Below, piece after piece: positions 1,201 through 59,029 of a stretch of 64,000 nt of DNA. The DNA comes from Glaucostegus cemiculus (taxonomy: Eukaryota). The notes beneath the pieces were generated by a model. It was not told where the DNA came from, made no database searches, and was given only the letters and a program-made list of their open reading frames with translations. Position numbers and translations under genes: made by a program. Location: positions 13,392,001 through 13,456,000 of the forward strand of contig CDPCPM010000074.1 in the NCBI GenBank assembly GCA_976551045.1. Reading direction: 5' to 3'. Numbering within the stretch: the first letter of the stretch is position 1; each line of letters starts with the position of its first letter.

Positions 1201-3190
1201 ACTAGTTTGTTATAGCTTCATTAGAACAGTTTGGCATAAGGGGTAAAGTATCTCTGAAACAACTATTTGTGATGTTTTTGAACAGAGCATTCATTGTCCC
1301 CCTGAGAGTAAATTCCCTGTGGCATGGGCACCAATTTTCTTGAAGCTGCCAACTTCCAATGTGTTTGTTCCAAGTCTTGCATTTCAGAAATATTATGTAA
1401 TAACTTTCCTCCTCCACATCTTGCACAATGTGAGTAGCTGCATTCCCCTAAAGGCAATTCTGTTTTGAAACATGATTTGCAGATACAATTCTTGAAACAA
1501 CCACATGATTGCTTTGTTTTAGTTTTTACTCAGTAAGAGAACAAACTCTGTCATAGTTATAAGGTGTTGTCATGCAAAATTCTAAGCTGCTCTTCATTTA
1601 AATTGCACCAATTGTTTTAGTTGTGGCTGTGCAGGAAATGCTAAATGTGCAGTAGGTAAGCACTTAGCACCGGACTTGATCCATGCAGGGAATTCCTAAT
1701 ATTTAAAAATAAATGGCTTTGGGTTCATGTTTAATTCATTAGAATCATGCAACCCAGCTCTCTTTTGGGGGTGGGGGGGGAAGAGGAGGGAATATTCTCA
1801 GTGAATTGGTTGCGATAAATAGAATAGATAGTATGTGTATTTAAAAAGGAAGCAGAAAATTGCAAAGGAACAGATCTCTTGAGATTTGCTGAAGTTAACT
1901 TTTAATTCTGATTTTAGAAAGCTTGGATTTTTTTCATTTTTAATTTTGGGAGTTGAAATTGGAGCCCAAAGATCCTGAGAAAATTTTGGAGGGGAGTTGT
2001 GGGAAAGAGAATCAGCTCATTTTGGATTTTTTTTTACATTAAGAAATATTTGCAGTTATTTAAATATTAATTCAAGTAATCCAAAATGTTAAAACTATTC
2101 AATCTAGATAAGAAATGGCGAGAGTAAAAAGTTTATGAAGTGATCAGATTAGCTTTGATTCAAAAATTTTAATTGACTTGTTTTGCAAGCTGTTTATGGT
2201 GGATGAAGGAAAAGCAGAAAGGACTACCCAGCTCGCTTTGAAACTCTGAAAACCAAATCCATGTTTTCATTTGATGATTTTTGGCTTTGAAAAATGATTC
2301 TTGAAATCCATGCAACTTGCTTTTATGAAATAGCACTGCTACGTGTATATTATATGTGCCAATGAATATGAAAAATGCAAATTTTATGATTTTCATTGAA
2401 GGGACCTGGGGGAGTTCTGTTTATTTAGGTATAAAATAGAATCTTTCTATAATAACTGAAAATATGCTGAAATGTGTAGGGTATATTTATCAAATCCTAA
2501 CTTTAATAATCAGCAAATGTTGCCCATGAAAGGCAAATGGGAGCATAGACCAGATGGAGATGTGAGAGGGAGACTTTTGAATACTAGTATGCAAGTCATC
2601 AAAAGTTAGTTTACAGAAAAATATAAGTTGTCATACCTCATGTAATGTACAAAAGCATACAGCTGTATCTGTGAAAGAGCCTTTTGAAGTATGTGTTAGG
2701 TATCAGGCTTCTGCCCTGGGGAAGATTACTGGCTTTAGGGGAAGTCAAATAACAGTCATGAAAATAGTGAACAAGGATTTGACTCTGATCAGAAACTAGG
2801 AAAGCCTCTGTTTATCTTTAATAGAAATTAAATTAAGGAGCAAGTTGGCTAAGAAGAATGTAGAATGGGGGCTAGTTCTTGCCACTAATAGTGGCATTGG
2901 GAACAAGGGAACACAATCTTAAAATCTCAACTAAATGTAATTTGAGGGAATATATTTTGAGTCCAGAATGTCAATTTGCTGACTGTAAAAGGGACACAGA
3001 TGCTTATGAATTAGCACTAAGAATGCACATTAGACAAGAATTGTGATTTAAAAGTGTTCTTACAGACAACAAAGTAGCAAATGATCTCTTGCTTCTCTCT
3101 CCCTACTAAGCTAGTAAAGAAGATTTTCACGAGTTCTCTGCAAACAGCTCCCCAGAAGGAACAACACTAACACTATGTTTTCTGTTGCAG

Positions 3191-3357
3191 GATTTTTTAT
3201 CGTGATGTTGTGCCTATTGACTGTTTATGCAAAAGATGCTTTGTTGGAGGGGAAACCCTGGTCCATATGCTTGCTGCTTGTAGTGATTCTTCTCTGTGCA
3301 GTTTTCACTTTCATCATCTGGAGACAACCAGAAAGCAAAGCAATACTCTCATTTAAG
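3191..3357 (+). CDS. SLC7A1: Cationic amino acid transporter 1, antepenultimate coding exon (167 bp)
   Basis: Splice sites ttgcag|GA...TTTAAG|gtagg. Encodes hydrophobic TM segments and 'IIWRQPESKAILSFK', which is characteristic of CAT-1. Phase is consistent with the next exon. Confidence 0.93.
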
Positions 3358-3468
3358 GTAGGCTTCCTAATTGGCTTCCGTTACAGCTTGAGTTGCTTGA
3401 CTGATTTCTCTTGATTAAAGTGTTTGTAAATGTCCCATTTCTGTGTATTTCATTGTTATGATTTTCAG

Positions 3469-4649: not shown

Positions 4650-7270
4650 CAGTGGTTTTCAACCTTTTTCATGCTGCGGACCCCCAGAGCATGTCATTGT
4701 TAGATGGCAGACCCCCAAAGCCCACAATATCAAACAACCAATAATTCACGCATACAACACTTAAATTACTGCACACAGGCCCTATTGAAATAGTGACTAT
4801 TTCAGTCACCAATAATTACCAGCGGTGTCTTTCAGTGTTCAGTTCAATGTGAAGGTTGTACCTGTTTTGCACTGCAAAGTATGTCCAAACAATGTGGTAT
4901 GTGCAGGAAACATGCGTGTATGTCATCCTCAATATTCATTCTTGACCTGTGTTTGGTTTTCATGGCAGTGACTGCAGAAAATGCTATTTTGCACAAGTAA
5001 GTGGTTGCAAATGGTAACAGAACATTGACGGCTTTGCCGGACAGCAGTGGATACTCCTGGGAACATGCTATCCAGAACAACAACAGTGACATTCGGTTGA
5101 ACTGCAAGCGCAAAGTCCTGTCAGATGATAGTTCACCCAGTTCTTCTTGTTCATGTCCAGTTAAATCAGTAAGCAAGCATTCAAACAGATTTCGAATCCA
5201 ATCAAACATGCTTGTGTCATCGTCGCTGAAATACTCATGGAAATAATGTGACAGCTGTTGAATATGGTTCAAAACGGTGCTCTCAATGGCCTCTGTCTTA
5301 GTCTCATTCACTGTCAGAAAGTCAGTCAGCAACAGAAGCGTATCATAGACGCCTTGCTCGCATCTTCCCTTCCAGATACGGAGCTTTTTCTGGAAGGCAT
5401 TGATTTTTGTCATGCATTTTCAGAACATTTGTTGAAAATATCTTCAAGATAAGCTAATCTGTCAACCTACGTCTCATCTGTCAAGAACTGTGCCAGTGAT
5501 TTTAAAATATCACAAGATCACAAGATCACAAGGTAATGGAGCAGAAGCAGGCCAGTCGGCCCATCGAGTCTGCTCCAAAGGGAAGGGAAGGGGGGGGGGG
5601 GGGGGGGGAAATAAACCTACTATTCTAAGTCCAAATCCCTGCCTTATCTCCATATCCCCTGATACCTTGACCAATTAGATATCTATCTATTTCCTTCTTG
5701 AATATCCCCAATGATCTGGCTTCCACTGCTCTCTGTGGTAAGGAGTTCCACAGGTTCACCACCTGTGAGCAGTTCATCTCGTAATTCATATACACACTGC
5801 ACAATGCGGCCTCGTGACAACCATCTGACTTCTGTATGTAGCAACAAATACTTATGTTCGGCTTCCATTTCACGGCATATATTTTCAAACAAACAATGAT
5901 TGAGCAGCCTGGCTTTGATAAAGTTAACGATTTTAATGTACGTGGAAAACACATCCGCAAAATTTTCACCCATATCCTTTGCAGCCAAAGCCTCGTGCTG
6001 TGGGTTGCTGCTACATGTGGTGCTACTTCTTTCACTCGTGCGACTGGACCAGACTTCCGTCCCGTCATTGCGACAGCACCATCCGTGCATACTCCAATAC
6101 ACTTGTGTCCACGTCAATGCCAATTGTACAAAAAGTGTCAAGCACATGGAAAAGTTCTTCACTGGTTTTACGCCCTGGGAGCAACTTGCAAAACAAAGTC
6201 TTCCAAAGCCTCTCCTTCCCAGCAATATCAAACATAAACCAACAACTGGCAACATCAGTACTTTCATCGAGCTGAATCGCAAATCTGACTTGCTGAAGAC
6301 AATGCTATCAGCTGGCTCTGTACGTCTTCTGCCATATCACCAATTCTTCTGCTTACTGTGTTATCAGACAGTGGAATGGCTTTCAGTTTTTGACTGGTTT
6401 CTTTTCCCAGTACAACTTCGTACATATCTACTGCCGCTTCTCCAATTGTGAGGCTTTCTGGAACGTGCTATTTGTAATGCTACCAGATATGATGCACACA
6501 GAGCCTTCTCATTTACAGTGGCACAGGCTGTCATTTTGCCTTTCTGCTTGAGTTACAGCTCCTTTTGCCACTCAAAATATTCCTTTAGCTTACTGGCAGT
6601 TTCTGGATGCACTGTTGTTAAATGGTTCTTCAATTTTGCTTGTTTCATTGCATCGTTGGACAGCGTTTGCAAACACAACACAGAGGTTGGTCCGCATTTG
6701 TCCCCACTGTGATGAAGCCATATGAAATGTATTCTGGATCGTACTTGTGTTGATTTCTCTTTCAGTCAACCTTATCCCCTTTGTCATCAGAATCTTCCGG
6801 TTTCTGTTCAGCTTTTCTCTTCAGAAATTTCTCCATATTCAGCAATACACACTGGACAGTTTACTATTACTGATAAACAAAATTATCTAAAATTTTTAAA
6901 ATTAAACTTTACACACTTGTGCACTTTTCGTTTAACAGTGACGTCACTGTAGCGTAAGCAATATTATGAAGGCAGACCAACTACGTCACTCGGTCTCGTT
7001 AACAGTAGTGCACAACAGAATAGTAGTCAGTAGTGAACACCACTGACTACACAAACTGAATATTAAGTAGCAGCTTACCAGAAGGGACACTGTCCAAGTC
7101 CTTTAAGATTGTCGCCTGTAACAGGTAGAATAGATATGGCCGATTTTTCTGAATAGTGGAAAACTGGAGCAAGCAAGTAAGCTACGTCTTTGTAACAGGC
7201 TCTTACATTTTTTTTCTTGGCTTGCTCATGGACCCCCAGGGATCCGTGGACCACAGGTTGAAAACCTCTG
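4650..7270 (-). mobile_element. Full-length hAT DNA transposon, Buster/Charlie type (transposase pseudogenised)
   Basis: TIRs CAGTGGTTTTCAACCT and revcomp CAGAGGTTTTCAACCT (15/16). 8-bp TSD ctcTAcat (4642-4649) / cccTAcat (7271-7278). Transposase pieces: 'LCLQTLSNDAMKQAKLKNHLTTVHP' (~6600-6690), 'LLLHTEVRWLSRG' and 'LLPFATTYLCKIAFS...QPSH'. Confidence 0.95.
5509..5763 (-). mobile_element. Young 5'-truncated CR1 nested inside the hAT transposase
   Basis: Encodes 'VVNLWNSLPQRAVEARSLGIFKKEIDRYLIGQGIRGYGDKAGIWT'. Has an (ATCACAAG)3 tail at 5509-5532. Nearly identical to 43927-44176. Confidence 0.95.
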
Positions 7271-7715: not shown

Positions 7716-8179
7716 TATAATTGGCTGAATTACATTAGAGTCTGGTTTCAAGGTCTAGGTTGCACTAATTCCTAATAGAGTGGAGAAATAGAGTATCTTT
7801 ATTTATTTGAACTGTGATCATAAAATAACACAGGAACAGGCCATGTATCCAAATGGCTTCTGCTTGTACTTGTCCTGAGCATCCACCATCCAGCTTCATC
7901 TAACTCTCCCCTTCCATTTCTTTCTTCCTTGTGCGCACATCCATCTTCGCACACTGGCATTTGCCACACCTACTGAAATAATATTCCTGGACAAATGATC
8001 TGGAGATATTAAACTACTGAACTTGCAGCCGGTTAGATCTGAAATTAAGCTAATATTTGTAATAACAATCATGAAACTGACAATGTTGCATAAAAATGTC
8101 CAGTTCACTTGTCATGTCAGGAAGGGAATCTGTTCTTGCCCTGTTTTGTATGTTGCTCTGGACCTACAAAAATGGCCAT

Positions 8180-9552
8180 AACTATTTTCCGGGGAATTAT
8201 AGACCGGTGAGTCTCACGTCTGTGGTGGGTAAGGTGTTAGAAAGGATTCTAAGGGATAGGATCTATGAACACCTGGAGAGTCATGGACTGATTAGGGACA
8301 GTCAGCATGGCTTTGTGAAGGGAAGATCTTGCCTCACGAGCCTGATAGAATTCTCTGAGGAGGTGGCGAGGAAGATTGAGGGCAGTGCGGTGAATGTGGT
8401 CTACGTGGATTTTAGTAAGACGTTTGATAAGGTTCCTCATGGTAGGCTTCAGAAGATCAGAGGTCAAGGCATCCAGGGGAGATTGGCTGTGTGGATCAGG
8501 AATTGGCTTGTCTGTAGAAAGCAGAGGGTTGTGGTGGAGGGAGTGTCCTCGGATTGGAGGGCTGTGACTAGTGGTGTCCTGCAGGGATCGGTTCTGGGAC
8601 CTCTACTCTTTGTTATATTTATAGATGACTTAGATGAAGGGGTGGAAGGATGGGTTGGTAAGTTTGCGGATGACATCAAGATCGGCGGTGTGGTGGATAG
8701 TGTGGAGGACTGTCGGAGCTTACAGAGGGATATTGATAGGATGCAGAACTGGGTGGACAGGTGGCAGATGGAGTTTAATCTGGAGAAGTGTGAAGTGGTA
8801 CACTTTGGTAGGACAAACTCCAGGGTGGAGTACAAGGTAAATGGCAAGTAGAGGAGCAGAGGGATCGGGGGGTTCATATCCATAGTTCACTCAAAGTTGC
8901 CTCGCAGGTGGATAGGGCAGTTAAGAAGGCTTATGGGATGTTAGCTTTTATAAATTATGGGATTGAATTCAAGAACCGAGAGGTGATGATGCTGATTTAC
9001 AAAATTCTAGTTAGACGGCACTTAGAGTATGGTGTTCATTTCTGGTTGCCACATTATGGGAAGGATGTGAAGGCGTTGGAGAAGGTACAGAGGTGATTTA
9101 CCAGGATGATGCCTGGATTAGAGGGTATGGAATATGAGGAGAGGCTTAAGGTGCTAGGGCTCTACTTGTTGGACAGGAGGAGGATGAGAGGGGACTTGAT
9201 AGAGGTGTTTAAGATATTGAGAGGAATAGATAGAGTGACAGCCAGTGCCTCTTTCCCAGAGCACAGTTGCTCAAGATGAGAGGGCATGGCTTTAAGATAT
9301 TGGGTGTAAAGTTCAGGGGAGATGTCAGGGAGGTTTTTCACCCAGGGAGTGGTTGGTGCATGGAATACACTGCCTGGGGTGGTGGTGGAGGCAGATACGT
9401 TGGACAGGTTCAAGGGATTGTTAGATAGGCATATGGAGGAATGTGGGATAGAGGGATATGTGGGAGGAAAGAGATGGTGTGACGTTTGAAGGATGGCACA
9501 GTTTGGTGGGCCAAAGGGCCTGTTTTGTGCTGTATTGTTCTATGGTTCTATT
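8180..9552 (+). mobile_element. CR1 LINE, 5'-truncated (RT domain to 3' tail)
   Basis: ORF 8096-8851 contains PGNYRPVSLTS, QHGFVKGRSCLT, QGSVLGPLLF and KFADD. Tail reads ATTGTTCTATGGTTCTAT. Confidence 0.95.
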
Positions 9553-9727: not shown

Positions 9728-10310
9728 AAACAAAATCTGTAGAAGGCATAAATTCTGTTCAGTATCGCATGTTATAATGATGTGCATCAGGATGTTGCCA
9801 GATAAATTTTTTGTACTTGGCACTGGACAAAAAAAAGTCCTCAGCAAGACCAAAAGAAGTTTTTAAATTGTTGCATTATTCACACAAAGGAATAACTGGT
9901 TCAAACAAAATGATTACAGTGATTTTAGAATTATTTATTAGGAAAATTTCTGTAATAAATGTAAAGATAAAAGGTTGCATAGTTCAGTGTTGTGGATGCT
10001 GTTGAGAAGTAAATCAGGCTGTGCAGCAAGAACTGGTAAATGGGGTTCATATAGATGGGCACCTGGTTGTCAGCAGGGATGGGTTGGGCTGAACAGCCTG
10101 TGAGTGTTCTATGCATAACTTTCATCAAACAAGTCTTTTATTTTAAACCTTCTGATTGTAAATGTTAAAATGAGGAAATGCTGTGACAATGAAGAAACAA
10201 TTGTCAGATCATTTAAAAAAATTGTTAGGAAATTTATAGCTTGTATGGTTTCAGTTTTCAGGATGAAGTTAAATTTGAAATAAGAGCCTTTCATTTCCTT
10301 TTTCTGACAG

Positions 10311-10513
10311 GATGCGTTATTTACTTTGCTTATGGAATACGGAACAGCTCAGAGTCCAGTTCTTCAAGTCTCCCAAGTGATAGAACTTCAAGGGTGTTTA
10401 AGGACACAGTGAGTGCACCAAATGGCGAGGCAGTACCTCCAGAGAAGGAAGCTTTCCTGCATGATATCGACGAATACGCTGCAGATAATAGGAACAGAGA
10501 GGATGATGTTTAA
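10311..10513 (+). CDS. SLC7A1: CAT-1 last coding exon, to stop TAA
   Basis: Polypyrimidine tract and tttctgacag|GA. Translates (G)CVIYFAYGIRNSSE...PEKEAFLHDIDEYAADNRNREDDV*. Phase 1 matches the previous exon. Confidence 0.93.
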
Positions 10514-17900
<7,387 letters not shown>

Positions 17901-24317: not shown

Positions 24318-24525
24318 TCATCTTGGGTTAGCACTCACTGCTGGAGGTGGGAGGGTGCCCTGAGAAGACTGGAAGTTTGAAGAGGAAGATATTTTGATTG
24401 GACTAACAGGCTCACCAGTCTGGAGCCTCCAAACCAGCTCCTCGTTGGTTCTGCTGAGCCTTTTCTTTTCCTTACTTTCCTTCTCAACATATTCATGAAG
24501 CGTTGCATTTTCCTCAGAGAGCTGT
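24318..24525 (-). CDS. MTUS2: MTUS2 last coding exon
   Basis: Acceptor ttgcag|A. Translates (R)[68 protein letters not shown]. Stop TGA at 24320-24318. Confidence 0.95.
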
Positions 24526-24775: not shown

Positions 24776-26580
24776 AATAATAGAACATTACAGCAAAGTA
24801 CAGGCTCTTTGGCCCACAATGTTGTGCCAACCTTTTAACCTACTCTAAGATCACTCTAACCCTTCCCTCCCACATGCCCCTCTATCTTTCTATCATTCCT
24901 GTGCCTATCTAAGTGTCTCTTAAATGTCCCTAATGCATCTGCCTCTACCAGCACCTCTAGCAGTGTGTTCCATGCACCCACCACTCTGTAAAAAAAAACT
25001 TACCTCTGATACCCCCATGTACTTTCCTCCAGTCACCTTAAAATGATGTCCCCTCATGTTAGCCATTTCCATCCTGGGAAAAAGTCTCTGGCTATCCACT
25101 CGATCTATGCCTCTTATCATCTTGTACACCTCCATCAGGTCACCTCTCATCCTCCTTCGATCTAAAGAGAAATGCCCTAGCTCACTCAACCTATCCTCAT
25201 AAGATGTGCTCTCCAATCCAGGTAGCATCCTGGTAAATCTCCTCTGTGCCCTTTCTAAAGCTTCCACATCCTTCCTATAGTGAGGTGACCAGAACTGAAC
25301 ACAATATTCTAAGTGTTTTAAGCCAACACATCATACGCTTTCTTAACAACCCTATCAACTTGTGCAGCAACTTTGATGGATCTATGGACTTGGATCCCAA
25401 GATGCCTCTGTTCCACCACACTGCTAAGAATCCTGCCATTAATCCTGTATTCTGCTTTCAAATTCAACCTTCCAAAGTGTCGTACTTTTCTGGGTTGAAC
25501 TCCATCTGCCACTCCTCAGCCTAGCTTTGCATCCTATCAATGTCCCATTGTAACCCTTGACAACTCCTGTGGCTTTTTCTTCTTCTCTTTCCTACCCTCT
25601 CTTTTTTCTACCCCCTTTTTTTCTCTCCTTACCTTTGACCCATCCCCCAGTGGATTTGCTCTCCCCTCCTCCCCCAGACCTGCCTATCACTATCTCTTAC
25701 CTGCATCTCCCTATCACCACCCTGTGCCCACTTCGCCTCCCCTCTTTTGTCCACCAATCACTGCTTTGCTTTTCCCTCCTATATATTGGGCTTCCCCTTT
25801 TCCTATCTTGGGTCCTGACCCGAAACATTGCCTGCTTTTCTCTGCAGATGCTGCCTGGCCTGCTGAGTTCCTCCAGCATTATAGTGTTTTCCTAAATCCT
25901 ACTTGCCAAGGCCTTCTCATGACCCCCTTCTAGCTCTCCTAAGCTCCTTCCTGGCTACCTTGTAACTCTCTAGAGCCCTGTCTGATACTTGCTTCCTAAA
26001 CCTTAAGCTTCTTTCTTTCTCTTCACTAGATATTCTACATCCCTTGTCAACCGCGGTTCCTTCACCCTACCATCCTTTTCCTCCTTCAATGGGACAAATC
26101 TATCCAGAACCCCATGCAAGTACTCCCTAAACAACCTCCACATTTCTAGTGTGCTTTTCCCTGAGTGCATCTGCTCCCAATTTACATTCCCAAATTCCTG
26201 CCTAATAGCATCATAATTTCTCCTCCCCCAATTAAATACTTTCCCATACAGTCTGCTCCTATCCCTCTGCAAGGTAAGGGTAAAGATCAGGGTGTTGTGG
26301 TTACTGTCTCTGAAATGCTCACCCACTGAGAGATCTGACATCTGACCAGGTCATTGCCTAGTACCAGATCCAGAATGGCCTCTCTAGTCAGCCTGTCCAC
26401 ATACTGTGTCAGGAATCCTTCCTGAACACATTGAACAAATTCTGTCCCATCCAAACCTTTTGCACTAAGGAGGTGCCAATCAATATTAGGGAAGTTGCAA
26501 TCAGCTATGACATCAACCCTGTTATTTTTGCACCTCTCCAAAAGCTGCCTCCCAACCTGTTCCTCAGTGTCTCTGTTGCT

Positions 26581-26612
<32 letters not shown>

Positions 26613-27790
26613 TGGGTCTATAGCAATAGAGTGATTGCTCCCTTCCTGTTTCTGAATTCCATCCACACTGACTCAGTAGACAATCCCTCCAGGACATCTT
26701 CCCATTCTGCAGGTGTGATACACTCCCTGATTAGCAAAGCCACTCCCCCACCTCTTTTACCTCCCTCCCTGTCCCTTTGGAAACATTTAAACCCCAGAAC
26801 ATTCTGCAGCCATTTCTGCCCTTGTGACAGACAAGTCTCTGCAATGGCCACAACATCATAGTTCCATGTACTGACCCATGCTCTAAGTTCATTACCCTTG
26901 TTCCTGATACATCTTGCATTAAAATAGACACATTTCAACCCAAACAACTGACTGCAATTTTGCCCTTTCAACTGCCTATCCTTCCTCACTGTCTCTCTAC
27001 ACATTGCATCAACCTGTACACCAAATGCCCCATCCTCTGACCTATCACTCTGGCTCCCACCCCCCCTGCCAAACTAGTTTAAATCCTCCCCAACATCTCT
27101 AGCAAACCTGCCTGCAAGAATATTGATTCCCCTCCAGTTCAGGTGTAACCCGTCCCTTTTGTACAGGTCGTACCTTCCCCAGAAGAGATCCTGATGATTC
27201 ACAAATCTGAAACCCTGCCCCCTGCACCAATTATTCAGCTACACACTCATTTGCCAAATCAACCTATTCTTACCATCACTGGTGCGTGTCACAGAGATTA
27301 CTACCTTTGAGGTCCTGCTTTTCAGCTTTTAGTTCCCCATATTCACTTTTCAGGACCTCATTCTTCTTCCTATCTATTTTGTTGGTACCAATATATACCA
27401 CGACTTCTGCCTGTTCACCCTCCCCCTTTAGAATGCTGTGGACCTGATCTGAGATGTCCCTGATCCTAGCACCTGGGAGGCAACATACCATCCAGGAGTC
27501 TCTTTCACATCCACAGAATCTAATGTCTACTCCCCTAACTATAGGGTCCCCTATCACTATGGCTCTCTTCTTCTCCCCACTTCCCTTCTGAGCCACGGAG
27601 CCAGATACAGTGCCAGCGATCAGACCGCTGTGGCTTTCCCCTGTTGTCATTTCTGCAACCCCAACTGTACCCCTGTTATTGAGGGGAACGGCCACAGGGG
27701 TACTCTGCACTACCTGCCTATTCCCTCCCCCTCCTGACAGTCACCCAGCTTCCTGCCCCCTGCAACTTCGGTGAGGCTACCCGCCTGAAG
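24776..27790 (-). mobile_element. CR1 LINE with ORF1 (SGNH esterase), endonuclease and 3' end; RT core deleted
   Basis: ORF1 reads 'AIVIGDPIVRG..CCLPGARIRD..VVVYIGTN'. Endonuclease reads 'CVYFNARCIRNK..VAIAET', 'GGGVALL' and 'LDLVLGN'. 3' ORF 24920-25267 is followed by the CR1 tail at ~24776-24815. Confidence 0.93.
25560..25885 (+). mobile_element. Penelope-like terminal fragment inserted in the CR1
   Basis: Pyrimidine-rich run, then GGGTCCTGACCCGAAAC...CAGATGCTGCCTGGCCTGCTGAGTTCCTCCAGCATT. The motif is shared with 33610-33780, 36130-36390 and 40545-40645. Confidence 0.7.
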
Positions 27791-28077: not shown

Positions 28078-28175
28078 CTTGTTAAGGCAGCATTATTATC
28101 AATCCTAACTTTCAGATCTTCATTCTGTTGTTGAAGTACTTGAACCTTTTCTTCCAATACCACATTCTTCTCAGC
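28078..28175 (-). CDS. MTUS2: MTUS2 coding exon (98 bp)
   Basis: tgcag|GCT...ACAAG|gttag; [33 protein letters not shown]. Confidence 0.95.
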
Positions 28176-32164: not shown

Positions 32165-32284
32165 CAGTTTTTCCAGTTGCATAATTTTCTTTTCTTGGTG
32201 ATGGATTTGTTGATTTTTCATTTCAAGAACATGTTTTAAACTATTCATATCTTCCTCTAAGTGCTGGTAAGGTGCCAAAGCAAT
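32165..32284 (-). CDS. MTUS2: MTUS2 coding exon (120 bp)
   Basis: tcacag|ATT...CTG|gttag; [40 protein letters not shown]. Confidence 0.96.
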
Positions 32285-34515: not shown

Positions 34516-34614
34516 CTCAACTTGCTCATCTGTAGTTTTTTTTAAGGCCTCTTCAAATCGTCTTGCTTTATCCTTCAGTGAACGATTCTGAAATGTTAAT
34601 GTGTCAACTTGATC
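34516..34614 (-). CDS. MTUS2: MTUS2 coding exon (99 bp)
   Basis: ttcaag|GAT...GAG|gtaaa; [33 protein letters not shown]. Confidence 0.95.
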
Positions 34615-35597: not shown

Positions 35598-35671
35598 CTG
35601 AAGGGAAAGTCTTAGTTTTTCAAATTCTTCTTCTAAAGTCATCCTTTCAAGTTCATGTATGGATTTTAGTT
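35598..35671 (-). CDS. MTUS2: MTUS2 coding exon (74 bp)
   Basis: ttttcag|AA...CAG|gttag; ELKSIHELERMTLEEEFEKLRLSLQ. Confidence 0.95.
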
Positions 35672-36677: not shown

Positions 36678-36783
36678 CTTCAAGTTTTTTTTCATGCTTA
36701 TCTTGAAGAATAGTTATTGCAACAGTGTGATTGTTCTCTAGTTCTGTGATTGCACTGGTATGGTTAGCCATCATGTCTTCCAC
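36678..36783 (-). CDS. MTUS2: MTUS2 coding exon (106 bp)
   Basis: ttatcag|GTG...GAAG|gtact; [35 protein letters not shown]. Confidence 0.95.
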
Positions 36784-38396: not shown

Positions 38397-38611
38397 CTGT
38401 TCCTTGTGCTGAGATTGGATTTTCTTGAGGTACTCTGTGTGCTCCTCTATGAGGTGCTCTTTCTCTGCAGTGTAATGAGCCTTCAACCTTTCTTCAAGAT
38501 CCCGGATCTCTGCTTGCTGTTGCAGTTGGAGCCTCTGTACCTCGATCTCAAATCTCCTTTCCAGCTCTTCCTTCTCCTTTTGCAGCTTTTCACATCGTGC
38601 TGTATTAAGGG
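38397..38611 (-). CDS. MTUS2: MTUS2 coding exon (215 bp)
   Basis: gtttcag|CC...CAG|gtctg; [44 protein letters not shown]...QHKEQ. Confidence 0.96.
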
Positions 38612-40799: not shown

Positions 40800-43700
40800 A
40801 CATTGAAAAAAGCGATCAATGATGAGCAGTACTCATTGTCTACTCCAAAGGTTTTATATGCAAGACTGGCAGGAAAGTTTCCACCGAACTCGATCCATTA
40901 CATGCATATGCATACGAATGTGGATTAGCAGCCAGCAAAATATGACAATCAATACACATAATTCCTACACAAAACTGAAAATGAATGTGAAATTGTCACT
41001 AAGAATCTTTCGAGCAACAATGGATAATATACAACAAGGTATAGATTGTTGTCTGTACAATCAAAGCAATGCATTCTAACATTACAGCTAGTGTTCAGAC
41101 AGCCACGTGAACACAATTTAAAAGTGAAAATAGGCAAATATGCATGTACAGAGGAAGTGGATTATCTTGGGCTAAAAATAAGTGTGTATAGATTACAACC
41201 ATTGAAAGGAGAATGAAAGTAAATGAAGGAAATCTGAAAACATTACTGAATCTAAATGATTCCTAAAAAGATACCATGCTGGATTTTTACCATATATTGC
41301 CAAAGTTCTGACACCATTACATCAGTTACAGAAGAAAGACAAAAAAAGACTGGAATTGTGGCAATCACTGAGTCGTGGCTGCATGATGGATGTGACTGGG
41401 AGCTCAATGTCCAGGGGTACACAGTGTATAGGAAGGATAGGCGGGAAGGTAGAGGGGGTGGTGTGGCCATGATAGTTAGTAATGAGATAAAATCAATAGA
41501 GAGGAAGGACATTAGGTCAGATGAAGTGGAAACTTTATGGGTGGAGCTAAGGAACAGCAAGAGTAAGAGGACAGTTGTAGCTGCTGTATATAGGCCCCCT
41601 AATAGCAATCAGGAGGTAGACCATAAGTTGCGGTTAGAGATAGAAAAGGCATGTCAGAGTGACAATGTTAAGATAATTATGGGTGACTTTAACATGAAGG
41701 TGGACTGGGAAACCCAGCAAGGCAGCAGTTCTCAGGAGAGCGAGTTTGTTGAATGTTTACGGGACGGCTTTTTGGAACAACTTGTTGATGATCCCACCAG
41801 GGGATCGGCTGTTTTGGATTGGGTGTTGTGTAATGAACCAGAGGTGATTAGAGAACTAAGGGTAAAGGAACCATTAGGAACTAGTGACCATAATATGATT
41901 GAGTTCAGAATGAAATTTGAAAAGGAGAAGCTGATGACTGGAGTGTCGACATTTCAGTGGAACAAGGGGAATTACAGAAGGATGAGAGAAGAGTTGGCCC
42001 AGATTGATTGGAAATATAAGCTCGCTGGAGGGACGGCAGAACATAAATGGGTGGAATTTAAGCAAGTAATAAGGAAAATGCAGGATAGACACATTCCAAG
42101 AAAAAAAGGTTTTAAATGGAAAAAGGACACAAATGTGGATAACGAGAGAGGTGAAAGCTAAAATAAGAGCAAAAGGGAGGGCATATAAGGAAGCAAGAAA
42201 AAGCGGGAAAACAGAAGACTGGGAAACTTTTAAGAACCTACAGAAAGAAACTAAGAAGGTCACTAGAAAAGAAAAGAGAAATTATGAAATGAAATTGGCA
42301 GAGAACATTCAAAAGGATACTAAGAGTTTTTTTAAATATATAAGAAGTAAAAGAGAGACGCGGGTTGATATAGGACCGATAGAAAATAATGCGTGAGAGA
42401 TTATTATGGATGATAAAGAGATGGCGGATGTGCTAAATCAGTATTTTGCGTCGGTCTTCACGGTGGAAGATATTAACAATATACCGGTTAGTCAAGGGTC
42501 TCGAGGGACGGAATTAAGTACAGTTAAGATTACTAGAGAGAAAGTGTTGGGGAAGCTAAATGGGTTAAAGACTAATAAGTCTCCAGGACCGGATGAGATA
42601 CATCCCCGTGTACTGAAGGAAGTAGCTTTAGAAATAGTGGAGGCATTAGTGATAATTTTTCAGGAATCGATAGACGCTGGAGAGGTTCCGGAGGACTGGA
42701 GTGTCGCGAATGTAGTTCCATTGTATAAGAAAGGTGGGAGACAGCACAAAGGAAATTACAGACCTATCAGTCTTACGTCTGTGGTGGGGAAGATACTAGA
42801 ATCGATCCTCAAGGACGAGGTGATGGGATACTTGGAGGTGCAAGGCAAGATAGGTCCTAGTCAACATGGGTTCGTGAAGGGAGGATCCTGCCTGACCAAT
42901 TTACTGGAGTTTTTTGAAGAAATCTCAGGCAGGGTGGACAATGGAGAGGCCGTAGATGTAGTGTATTTAGACTTTCAGAAGGCATTCGACAAGGTGCCGC
43001 ACAAAAGACTAATTAGTAAGATGAGAGATCACGGAATAACAGGCAGGATAACAGAATGGGTGGAGCGTTGGCTGGATGGCAGGAAACAGAGGGTGGGAAT
43101 AAAAGGTTCCTGTTCTGGTTGGCTGCCGGTTACTAGTGGTGTTCCACAGGGGTCGGTGTTGGGGCCCCTTCTTTTTACCTTGTATATTAATGATTTAGAC
43201 GAAGGAGTTAATGGGTTTGTGGCCAAGTTTGCAGATGACACTAAGATTGGGGGGGGAGTGGAGAGTATTGAGGAGACAGGAAAGTTACAGAGAGACTTGG
43301 ATATTCTAGGAGAATGGGTGAAGAAATGGCAGATGAGGTTCAATGTGGAAAAATGTGCAGTTGTACACTTCAGAAGTAGAAATGGACGGGCAGACTATTA
43401 TCTAGAAGGAGATAAAATTGGAAGCACAGAAGTACAAAGGAACTTAGGGGTGCTCTACAGGATAACCTAAAGGTTAATCGCCAGGTTGGATCGGCAGTAA
43501 GGAAAGCGAATGTTATGTTGGCATTTATTTCGAGGAGTATAGTATATAAAAGCAAGGAAGTGTTGATGAGGCTATACGGGGCACTGGTGAGGCCTCACTT
43601 GGAGTACTGTGTGCAGTTTTGGGCCCCATACCTTAGGAAGGATGTGCTGATGTTGGAGAGGGTTCAGAGGAGATTTACTAGGATGATTCCTGGGATGAAA

Positions 43701-45230
43701 AAGTTTACATATGATGAGCGACTGTCGCCACTTGGACTGTACTCGTTGGAGTACAGAAGAATGAGAGGGGACCTAATAGAAACGTACAAGATGTTGAAAG
43801 GAATGGACAAAGTGAATGTGGTCAAGCTGTTTCCCTTGGTGGGGGAATCCAGGACTAGAGGACACAAACTTAGAATTAGAGGAAGCAGGTTCAAAACAGA
43901 GATAAGGAGGAATTTCTTTAGCCAGAGGGTGGTGAACCTGTGGAACTCCTTACTACAGAAAGCAGTGGAAGCCAGATCATTGGGGATATTCAAGAAGGAA
44001 ATAGATAGATATCTAATTGGTCAAGGTATCAAGGGATATGGAGATAAGGCAGGGATTTGGACTTAGAATAGGTTTTTTTTTCTCTTATCCTCTTTTTCCC
44101 CACCCTCCCTTCCCTTTGGAGCAGACTCGATAGGCCGACTGGCCTGCTTCTGCTCCATTATCTTGTGATCTTGTGAATTAAGCAAGAATAGAAAACAGTA
44201 TATGACATTTTTAGGAAGAGTCTAGGAGGTGAGTCATTGTTAGTTCACTATGATGCAACGTTATGTTAGAACTTGTGTGTGATGCTCTGACTTACTATAA
44301 TCAGTCATGTAAGAGACGGTGGTCAAGAGAAAACAATTTCACTGATGAAGAGTGAGAAATATAATTTTCTTTTAAATGTATTAAATGCTTGCTTATTTCA
44401 CCATATCATCCAGCATCAAATGGTGCAGTGGAAAGATAAGTGAGAATTAGCAAGGAAGCAAGTATTACAGGGATACTTAAGTTTAACAATGAGACATTGG
44501 TCATCTAAACTCCAGAACAATGCCTCATCCTATTGCATGTTATACACATCTGAGTTACTGATGCACAGAGTACTCAGAACATGATGGAGCTTGGTTCAGC
44601 CAAATCTTGAGGGGAGAGTGGAAGAGAAGCAGATAAAAGAGAAACAAAATTATGGCTGATGCTGTGGAAAGACATAAATCAAACAACATGGCAGAGAGTG
44701 TTTGTTGACACCATCTAGCAAATTTGATACCCAAACATGGCATACTGGAGTCATAGTTAAAATCTTTGGTATAAAGGGATATCTTGTAAAAATAGGAGAT
44801 AAAATTGGAGGTGTATTCATAAGTCACTTATTTCTAGGAAAAAAGACATGAAAGAGAATTTTGAAGTGTTATGTGTTTCCAAGATATTAACCAACTGGTC
44901 CAGTGGAGACTGTGGAAGAAACAACTGAGGATTCTGCTGAATTGAGACAAGTAGTGGGATCCCTCTCCAGTCAAGAATGGTTACAACACCTATGATGCAA
45001 AATTTTTTTGATGAACAACGAGATTTAGATAACCCATGAATAAATTAAATCTGTCAATAATGAGAATATATGAATCATTAATTTCAGAAATGGAAAGCAG
45101 TGTAGTGCGCATAAATGCATTAAAATACACATGAGCAGTGTAATCACAGAGACACATGAGCAGTGTAATCAGACAGCTGAATAAACAAGATACAGGTGTT
45201 CTAGCAGCTCTCCATTCCCTGCACTGCACA
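40800..45230 (+). mobile_element. Heavily decayed Gypsy LTR retrotransposon (RT, RNase H, integrase, possible 3' LTR) interrupted by a CR1
   Basis: Before the CR1: 'IFRATMDNIQQG' (~41005), 'EEVDYLGLKI' (~41150) and 'GFLPYIAKVLTPLHQLQKKD' (41281). After it: 'LLVHYD' and 'LVCDA' (~44238-44286) and 'WQRVFVD' (~44689). A TG...CA segment at 45101-45230 contains AATAAA. Confidence 0.7.
41355..44176 (+). mobile_element. Young CR1 LINE, nearly complete ORF2 (endonuclease and RT) with three lesions
   Basis: Four consecutive ORF pieces: IVAITESWL, GDFN, SDH / WITREVK / NYRPISLTS, GVPQGSVLGP, KFADD / RPHLEYCVQFW. Frameshift at ~42110, TGA at 42394, frameshift at ~43460. Tail (TCTTGTGA)2; possible GAATT TSD. 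Confidence 0.97.
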
Positions 45231-56744: not shown

Positions 56745-56811
56745 CTACTTCATCCCTGATATGAGCAAGCTCAATGGAGAGTTCTTTCTCTTTGATAAGG
56801 GCACTTCCATT
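56745..56811 (-). CDS. MTUS2: MTUS2 coding exon (67 bp)
   Basis: tttgcag|AAT...GTAG|gtaag; NGSALIKEKELSIELAHIRDEV. Confidence 0.95.
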
Positions 56812-57688: not shown

Positions 57689-57742
57689 CCTCTTGTCCAG
57701 ACAACCAAAGCAGTAATGCAGCTTGCAACAGCAATGGCCCAT
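57689..57742 (-). CDS. MTUS2: First coding exon of the short MTUS2 isoform (MGHCCCKLHYCFGCLDKR)
   Basis: Good Kozak context (AGGATGG), 18 codons, then AGG|gtaat. The phase 0 donor matches the 56811 acceptor. It resembles the MGHCCCK.. start of the mammalian short isoform, from recall. Confidence 0.88.
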
Positions 57743-58330
57743 CCTAGCAGGCTTGGTGATACACAAGCCTGCTTCATTCAATCGGTCTTCTCACAGGTCC
57801 TTTGCTGCAATGATTTTTAGTAAATGCTGCACACTGGCAACAGCTACCCCTACCTATATGTGACACTAAGAACTACCTTATTCTTCTTAATATTTCCAGA
57901 AACACAGAGAGGGAGACGAGGATACAGGAAGATTATCAACATCCTGCTGAAGGGGAAGTTACTGTGCCAGTGTAAGCTGCGTCAGAATGAGGCTGATCAA
58001 TACTCACACTATGGGTATGATGCTGATTCCATCATTCTTAAAGCTGACAACGTTATGGCACTGTGGCGATTTGTTAATGTAACGCGCAGAAAAATGAAGA
58101 AAACCTATTGCAGTGTAAAAATGATTAATTATATTATAGAAATGATTCACTACCATCATAGCATAGCTACATTCCTGCTAGCTGGTTGAAGCTGCTATCT
58201 GGCTGTTTAAAATAGATCTTATTTTTTAAAGTCACATTTTGTTGTGCAGCCACTAGCTTTATTGTGGTAATGGGTGGGATTACAATAATTCAAACCCAGA
58301 TATAATCAAGATATCTCTATTTAGACTGTA
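57743..58330 (-). promoter_or_regulatory. Putative internal promoter / 5' UTR of the short MTUS2 isoform
   Basis: Repeat-free stretch directly upstream of the ATG exon. Contains CRE-like TGACGCA (~57978-57984), a near-MEF2 CTATTTTAAA (58206-58215) and a possible UTR donor gtgagt at ~58007. Confidence 0.4.
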
Positions 58331-59029
58331 AATAAGAAATAAAGCAGTACTGCAGAGTAAGTAAATCAATTCAGTTCTGTTTTCTCACTTTGTGTCCCTT
58401 TTAAGGTTATAAAAGGGAAAATAATGGAAATATAAAGCATAATACATCAGAATTTGAGAAATTAATATCTCACAGAATCCTTTTCTTACAATTGACCTCT
58501 GCCTAAAATATCAGGTTGTCTTTTCCTTTTACAGATGTTGATGTATTACTTCAGATCTACAACATTCATACTTTATTTCTCTTTATCTCCAGCTGAGCTG
58601 AATATAGCAATACTGAAATAAATGTTCATCATGATAAAGAAAATTAACTTTAAAGGTACAGCATAATAAAGGAGGAAATTGGGACCAGGAGAAAATAATG
58701 GGCAGAATGGAGGTGCATTCATGCTATCAGCTCCCACCAGGGTCAGATGTGAAGAGCTGAACATGTGACTCTATTCCTAGGGGGATGGGCAGTGAGATAT
58801 GGTGAGGCCTCAGTTAATATATGCCTGAGGCCCCAACTTCCTAACGCCCTGATAGCATTTGATAGGAGGAAAGGTTAGAGGTACGTCTGCCAAGTGTGGA
58901 AGACAATATTTAACAATTTTTGATCTTCAGAAATTTTTTTTTAAGATTCATTTTCAGGATCTGGGCCCATGTCTAATAAGCTAGCATTAAAAGTTATTAA
59001 GAATGCTGTGAACAATTAAGATGCACATT

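Follow-up and report, generated by a model that had tools for sequence, protein, structure and literature searches.

Does MTUS2, besides its long isoform, possess a second start that would attach its coiled coil to membranes? Research on MTUS2/TIP150 and MTUS1/ATIP3 treats them as regulators of microtubules and as candidate tumour suppressors. Should the short isoforms of both genes carry a lipid anchor, experiments with knockouts, C-terminal antibodies or 3' probes would mix two proteins from different compartments, and N-terminal tags would mask the anchor, as reported for CCDC69 (PMC11621681). The family would also provide a clean example of an isoform turning into a separate gene after duplication.

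The question arises from 54 nt on the minus strand of the window, i.e. the whole 64,000-nt stretch of DNA analysed here. According to our preferred reading, to which we assign a probability of roughly 65%, these 54 nt form an alternative first coding exon, likely under an internal promoter, giving rise to a 346-residue, predicted all-helical isoform with predicted myristate on Gly2 and palmitate on Cys4–6, membrane-held rather than tip-tracking.

Results and Discussion

Gene model. The first-pass annotation had claimed that the exon splices in phase to eight downstream exons. All named sizes were found in the window and, when joined, they give 1041 nt coding for 346 amino acids and one stop.

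57689..57742, minus strand: alternative first coding exon of MTUS2, 54 nt, MGHCCCKLHYCFGCLDKR; ATG at 57742, phase-0 donor
56745..56811, minus strand: common 67-nt exon; acceptor of the long isoform and also, as annotated in other species, of the short one
38397..38611, minus strand: 215-nt exon, coiled coil; AG..GT, open frame in phase
36678..36783, minus strand: 106-nt exon; AG..GT, open frame in phase
35598..35671, minus strand: 74-nt exon; AG..GT, open frame in phase
34516..34614, minus strand: 99-nt exon; AG..GT, open frame in phase
32165..32284, minus strand: 120-nt exon; AG..GT, open frame in phase
28078..28175, minus strand: 98-nt exon; AG..GT, open frame in phase
24318..24525, minus strand: last coding exon, 208 nt including the stop, helix end and Ser/Pro-rich tail; AG..stop, open frame in phase

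The first exon comprises 18 codons with an AGG/GTAATT donor directly after 57689, and the ATG at 57742 lies in a strong Kozak context (A at −3, G at +4). Assignment to MTUS2 was borne out: beyond the first exon, the protein is identical to the Pristis pectinata MTUS2 record P0001 at 325 of 328 residues, which places the window in a sawfish-like ray, and the MTUS2 clade is supported with 100/100. The first-exon peptide shares 16/18 residues with skate (P0002), 13/18 with emu (P0077) and 12/18 with horse (P0020). Residue 20, encoded at window position 56807, is Gly, in contrast to Glu in P. pectinata and in the organisms A, B and C; this is either a private variant or an error of the assembly.

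The preceding exon of the long isoform ends at the window-equivalent position 82511, beyond the window and 25.7 kb ahead of the common acceptor. The 54-nt exon thus sits within a 25,699-nt intron, 877 nt ahead of that acceptor. In this intron it is the only ATG-GG start with at least two Cys in codons 3–7 and an in-frame donor. By chance, 0.045 such motifs per intron are expected, or 0.405 without the donor condition (200 Markov simulations; criteria set post hoc). A chance intronic motif was rejected on this expectation together with the orthologous peptides in other species. The existence of a 54-nt first exon in MTUS2 is near certain.

Downstream of MTUS2 and on the opposite strand, window positions 3118–3411 (+) match cationic amino acid transporter 1 with an E-value of 3e-11. 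Together with a putative exon at about 10229–10513 (+) they appear to be 3' exons of an SLC7A1-like gene lying tail to tail with MTUS2; in human, SLC7A1 neighbours MTUS2 in the same arrangement. Broken frames resembling LINE endonuclease/reverse transcriptase and pieces of DNA transposons were noted by eye at 41256–44066, 8081–9096, 26003–27740, 4844–6336 and 16008–16530, the first of these being CpG-rich and lying inside an 18-kb MTUS2 intron.

Annotation across vertebrates. The record set contained 235 MTUS2-type records, 207 of them with the shared-exon motif and 77 with the first-exon peptide directly before it. Two seal records carrying the peptide plus an extra insert were excluded from the 77. 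The peptide occurs in skate, teleosts, frogs, reptiles, birds, a marsupial and placentals up to primates, and the proposed conservation from cartilaginous fish to mammals therefore stands (77/235). The mammalian start MGHCCCK, given in the first-pass annotation, was found in the records, with MGHHCCK in mouse. No human short MTUS2 record was among those examined, and PMC11621681 gives the number of MTUS2 isoforms as three. The description of the exon as hidden holds in part: a short form is missing from the four P. pectinata isoforms (1503, 1455, 618 and 1504 aa), but it is widely annotated elsewhere. Short MTUS2 is an already annotated isoform and, as an isoform, ordinary. Since the peptide is internal in none of the 86 long MTUS2 records, the exon behaves as a first exon and replaces the long N-terminus as had been suggested; use as an internal cassette was rejected on the same count.

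Transcription. The following features were assigned around the start of the short isoform.

57743..57917, minus strand: inferred 5' UTR/promoter of the short isoform, sequence upstream of the ATG
57918..58014, plus strand: putative antisense exon, 97 nt, donor GTATGA; one 225-nt contig, run X1
58593..58719, plus strand: putative next antisense exon after a polypyrimidine-CAG acceptor; same X1 contig

In this genome no in-frame ATG precedes the start before a stop 16 codons upstream of 57742. One out-of-frame ATG with weak context lies 35 nt upstream, and no match to TATA or CArG consensus sequences was found upstream of the start. For the related organism A, no read or contig fell on the 54-nt exon in three raw RNA runs or in one set of contigs, these data being shallow (18–24% of the raw runs) and of unspecified tissue. 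From the same runs, four reads and one contig cover the shared 67-nt exon; three X6 reads and the contig extend from there into the long-isoform exon, their loose end being matched to P0001 by eye. The junction between first exon and shared exon is annotated in other species. We consider it highly probable that a promoter lies just upstream of 57742.

The 225-nt X1 contig (depth 4.9) joins 57918–58014 to 58593–58719. On the plus strand the skipped segment begins with GTATGA and ends in polypyrimidine-CAG, and it is present without a break in a DNA contig of organism B; 57918–58014 does not differ between organism A and the window. The joined piece contains no open frame of more than 32 codons. 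This suggests a divergent spliced transcript that begins near the short-isoform start, some 180 nt before the ATG. The antisense evidence is one strandless contig, from a run flagged as likely DNA, whose other contig is nevertheless spliced, and a deletion in organism A instead of splicing is an alternative explanation for the join.

Predicted lipidation. In the window short form, the first in-frame ATG is followed by Gly at position 2, and Cys stands at positions 4, 5 and 6. The SH4-type signature assigned earlier is thus present with respect to Gly2 and Cys4–6, but the myristoylation site is weaker than had been implied: position 3 is His, and Cys6 replaces the canonical Ser/Thr6. Fyn likewise has Cys6-Lys7. 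Ser6 is not obligatory for dual acylation, judging by analogy with the sperm hexokinase HK1S, which is reported to do without it (PMC4736023). Concerning His3, no such peptide was among the rows listed from two tables of PMC10696250, and no rule for it was found in the available main text of an NMT study (bioRxiv 10.1101/2021.06.22.449375).

The strongest support for the anchor is, by analogy, the published myristoylation of CCDC69 combined with equivalent exons in MTUS1 and CCDC69 (see below); with the pattern seen in all three genes, acylation of short MTUS2 becomes more plausible a priori. Human CCDC69 is reported at the cortex, and this localisation is lost with G2A, an NMT inhibitor or an N-terminal tag (PMC11621681). 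Palmitoylation is not mentioned in the available text of that paper (0 matches); the Cys cluster of CCDC69 predicts it on top of the published myristoylation. Lipidation proteomics was nearly uninformative, with no match to MTUS2, MTUS1 or CCDC69 in three supplementary files of PMC10696250 (SwissProt search; colon, kidney, liver, lung, muscle, spleen). The same three names gave no match in the supplements of PMC4200515 and PMC12316903 (six files each) or in the main text of PMC4550359. The N-terminal tryptic peptide of short MTUS2 has a length of six residues. As the first-pass annotation had supposed, the literature searched contained no lipidation study of the MTUS2 or MTUS1 short forms; most subscription papers lay outside this search, among them the first CAZIP paper and curated lists of the myristoylome, so the prediction may already be in print. 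Further background on the subject can be found in the available parts of PMC13082882 and PMC10318397.

Two gradations have to be distinguished here. Some N-terminal acylation giving membrane binding of short MTUS2 can be expected with good confidence, and the more specific combination of myristate and palmitate is the probable form of it. The latter competes with an N-terminus carrying palmitate only, as in GAP-43: the Cys cluster would be S-acylated and membrane-targeting without myristate, and Gly2 an ancestral relic or a residue with another N-terminal role. In the 77 short-form records, which are mutually non-independent and were selected by demanding a Cys within positions 4–6, conservation of Cys5 (76/77) equals that of Gly2 (75/77), with Cys4 in 64 and Cys6 in 68. 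Cys in place of Ser6, which is found in 5/77, also fits palmitate alone, as do the short forms of medaka (P0157) and Takifugu (P0179), where Asp2 occurs with the Cys retained, and the eight records starting 10–37 codons further upstream, in which Gly2 would be buried. Against this reading, Gly2 is kept from skate to primates and Lys or Arg stands at position 7 in 70/77. Furthermore, position 3, His in 55 records, is Gln in 17, and Gln3 is reported to facilitate myristoylation when Ser/Thr6 is absent (PMC4736023); the paralog CCDC69 is itself reported as myristoylated (PMC11621681). Palmitate alone is therefore regarded as unlikely. Two bird records, P0138 and P0160, begin with MGK and have fewer Cys.

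The extended starts also bear on the view that the real isoform is made mainly from an upstream AUG, or rarely made at all, and functions as a coiled coil lacking an anchor, e.g. as a dominant-negative partner of TIP150. Mouse RefSeq isoform d (NP_001403209.1) begins 10 codons upstream of the MG and so bears a 10-residue extension, the bases directly 5' of the ATG are similar in sawfish, turtle, kiwi and mouse, and the exon is free of reads in the shallow organism A runs. The extensions, however, vary in length by species (10, 11, 13, 18, 37), and the window has the strong Kozak context without an in-frame upstream ATG, which makes this view improbable. Slightly harder still to accept is a Cys/His-rich peptide (CCC..CxxC) that binds a metal or a partner protein instead of lipid. 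Cys11 and Cys14 are retained in many tetrapods and in rays, as such a site would have it, but one of the two is missing in many teleosts; the paralogs have canonical MGxxxS(K/R) starts, and the first-exon peptide is unstructured in the AlphaFold model. Myristate plus palmitate remains our preferred reading of the N-terminus.

Coiled coil and proposed mechanism. The loss of the EB1-binding N-terminus, claimed at the outset, agrees with the distribution of SxIP-like motifs. P0001 contains five at residues 675–982, all before the shared part starting at 1176; the four long forms examined have 4–6 each, again all before the shared part, and none remains in the short isoform. EB1 and MCAK are reported to bind TIP150 in a region upstream of the coiled coil, and the coiled coil dimerises without binding EB1 or tracking tips (PMC2699393). 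AlphaFold predicts the skate short form as a single helix from residue 15 to 314 (mean pLDDT 83.6) with low confidence for residues 1–16. The last two coiled coils of human CCDC69 reportedly bind microtubules (PMC11621681), and the window protein is most similar to sawfish CCDC69 at residues 251–300 (26/50, compared with 10–19/50 elsewhere).

A possible sequence of events can be drawn from these points. An internal promoter just upstream of 57742 would start the short transcript; after removal of Met, Gly2 would receive myristate and Cys4–6 palmitate. The product would be a membrane-held coiled-coil dimer, unable to tip-track; microtubules close to the membrane and TIP150 are its possible binding partners. 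That short MTUS2 acts as a CCDC69-like anchored dimer which contacts microtubules near the cortex, can pair with TIP150 and pulls it off plus ends is put forward tentatively, as less likely than not.

Origin of the First Exon

Equivalent first exons were located in the two paralogs of the same genome.

G000:C29:23847755-23847702, minus strand: MTUS1 first exon MGCSSSKICLYGPCTGKR, 54 nt, MGCSSSK start; AGG/GTAACT, phase 0
G000:C10:29793072-29793119, plus strand: CCDC69 first exon MGSSNSKLCCCKSRKK, 48 nt, MGSSNSKLCCC start; phase 0, then 67-nt exon

In MTUS1 the 54-nt exon is followed by an 885-nt intron and a 67-nt exon, compared with 54, 877 and 67 nt in MTUS2. The MTUS1 locus was identified by 574 summed bits against an MTUS1-clade protein versus 233 against MTUS2. 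CCDC69 lies on a third contig, separate from those of MTUS2 and MTUS1. After the first exon, the sizes are 67/215/106/74/99/120/98 in MTUS2, 67/215/106/74/(fifth outside the scan)/120/98 in MTUS1 and 67/212/100/74/102/120/98 in CCDC69. Among 120 paralog records, 19 are MTUS1 isoforms starting with MGCxxS (fish and one bird, chosen for the MG start); 69 have other MG starts, nearly all CCDC69 and 67 with Ser6, and 32 start otherwise.

A tree of 40 C-terminal regions, with the first exon cut off as far as the profile allowed and rooted at the midpoint, supports MTUS2 (100/100), MTUS1 (99/97, five of its rows being assigned by tree position), CCDC69 (100/99) and MTUS1 plus CCDC69 (99/97). Eleven invertebrate proteins lie on the opposite side (100/100); lamprey_B and Priapulus form long branches. 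The small number of lamprey, hagfish and invertebrate records examined showed no MG-Cys start.

The three first exons are too short for a proof of homology by sequence. As the peptides share little beyond MG and Cys, homology rests on position, phase and size. Matching phase-0 exons ahead of the same 67-nt exon in all three genes indicate that the anchor exon likely predates the three-gene split. That it arose once, before the duplication separating MTUS2 from MTUS1/CCDC69, and that CCDC69 lost the long N-terminus and retained the short form only, is the simplest reading and, in our judgement, likely; CCDC69 looks like a short isoform fixed as a separate gene. The family-wide occurrence of an MG-Cys exon across the three genes has apparently not been remarked on before. 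A broader scenario, which we place a little short of even odds, would have the ancestral vertebrate MTUS gene gain a lipid-anchor exon toggling between a microtubule-tip and a membrane-bound coiled coil. MTUS1 and MTUS2 would have kept both forms and CCDC69 the anchored one alone, MTUS2 would have swapped Ser6 for a triple-Cys palmitoylation patch, and short MTUS1 and MTUS2 would be CCDC69-like cortical regulators capturing long isoforms by dimerisation.

Long MTUS-like proteins were also seen in amphioxus, echinoderms, hemichordates, priapulids, brachiopods, molluscs and chelicerates (P0315, P0330, P0335, P0357, P0340, P0336), that of amphioxus with a CAP-Gly domain. These matches differ from two papers calling TIP150 and CCDC69 vertebrate-only, with the reservation that coiled-coil bias may inflate their E-values. 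At the curated Pfam cut-off 0/8 proteins gave a match; PF27558 and PF27559 are present in database rows.

Comparison with Known Systems

The window isoform differs in nothing of substance from annotated short MTUS2 (skate P0002, horse XP_014699326.1, gibbon A0A2I3GX19, mouse D3YZ69/NP_001403209.1), which has the identical type of first peptide and junction and about 347 aa. TIP150, the long MTUS2, has the same C-terminal dimerising coiled coil but also contains the region binding EB1 and MCAK, which is missing from the short form (PMC2699393). CCDC69 resembles short MTUS2 as a paralog consisting of a coiled coil only, its MG-Cys first exon agreeing in intron position and phase and its downstream exons in size; it differs in being a separate gene, without a long N-terminus in the records examined, and in its canonical Ser6. 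In the available text of PMC11621681 CCDC69 is set against ATIP3A, ATIP4 and TIP150, and the short MG isoforms do not figure in the comparison.

At MTUS1/ATIP, internal promoters are reported to attach different N-termini to a shared coiled coil and thereby alter localisation, as proposed here for MTUS2; ATIP1, 3 and 4 have 395–396 residues in common (PMC3566609, PMC8147298, PMC2706840, PMC5015389). The MTUS1 isoform starting with MGCxxS (about 347 aa) is present in databases and undescribed in the available parts of these ATIP papers. Switches of first exon that bring in a dual-acylation motif are a known type, HK1S being a reported case (PMC4736023). There, an alternative first exon provides Gly2 and Cys as a dual-acylation motif without Ser6 and targets the protein to the plasma membrane; HK1S differs in being an unrelated, experimentally tested enzyme with Gln3 instead of His3.
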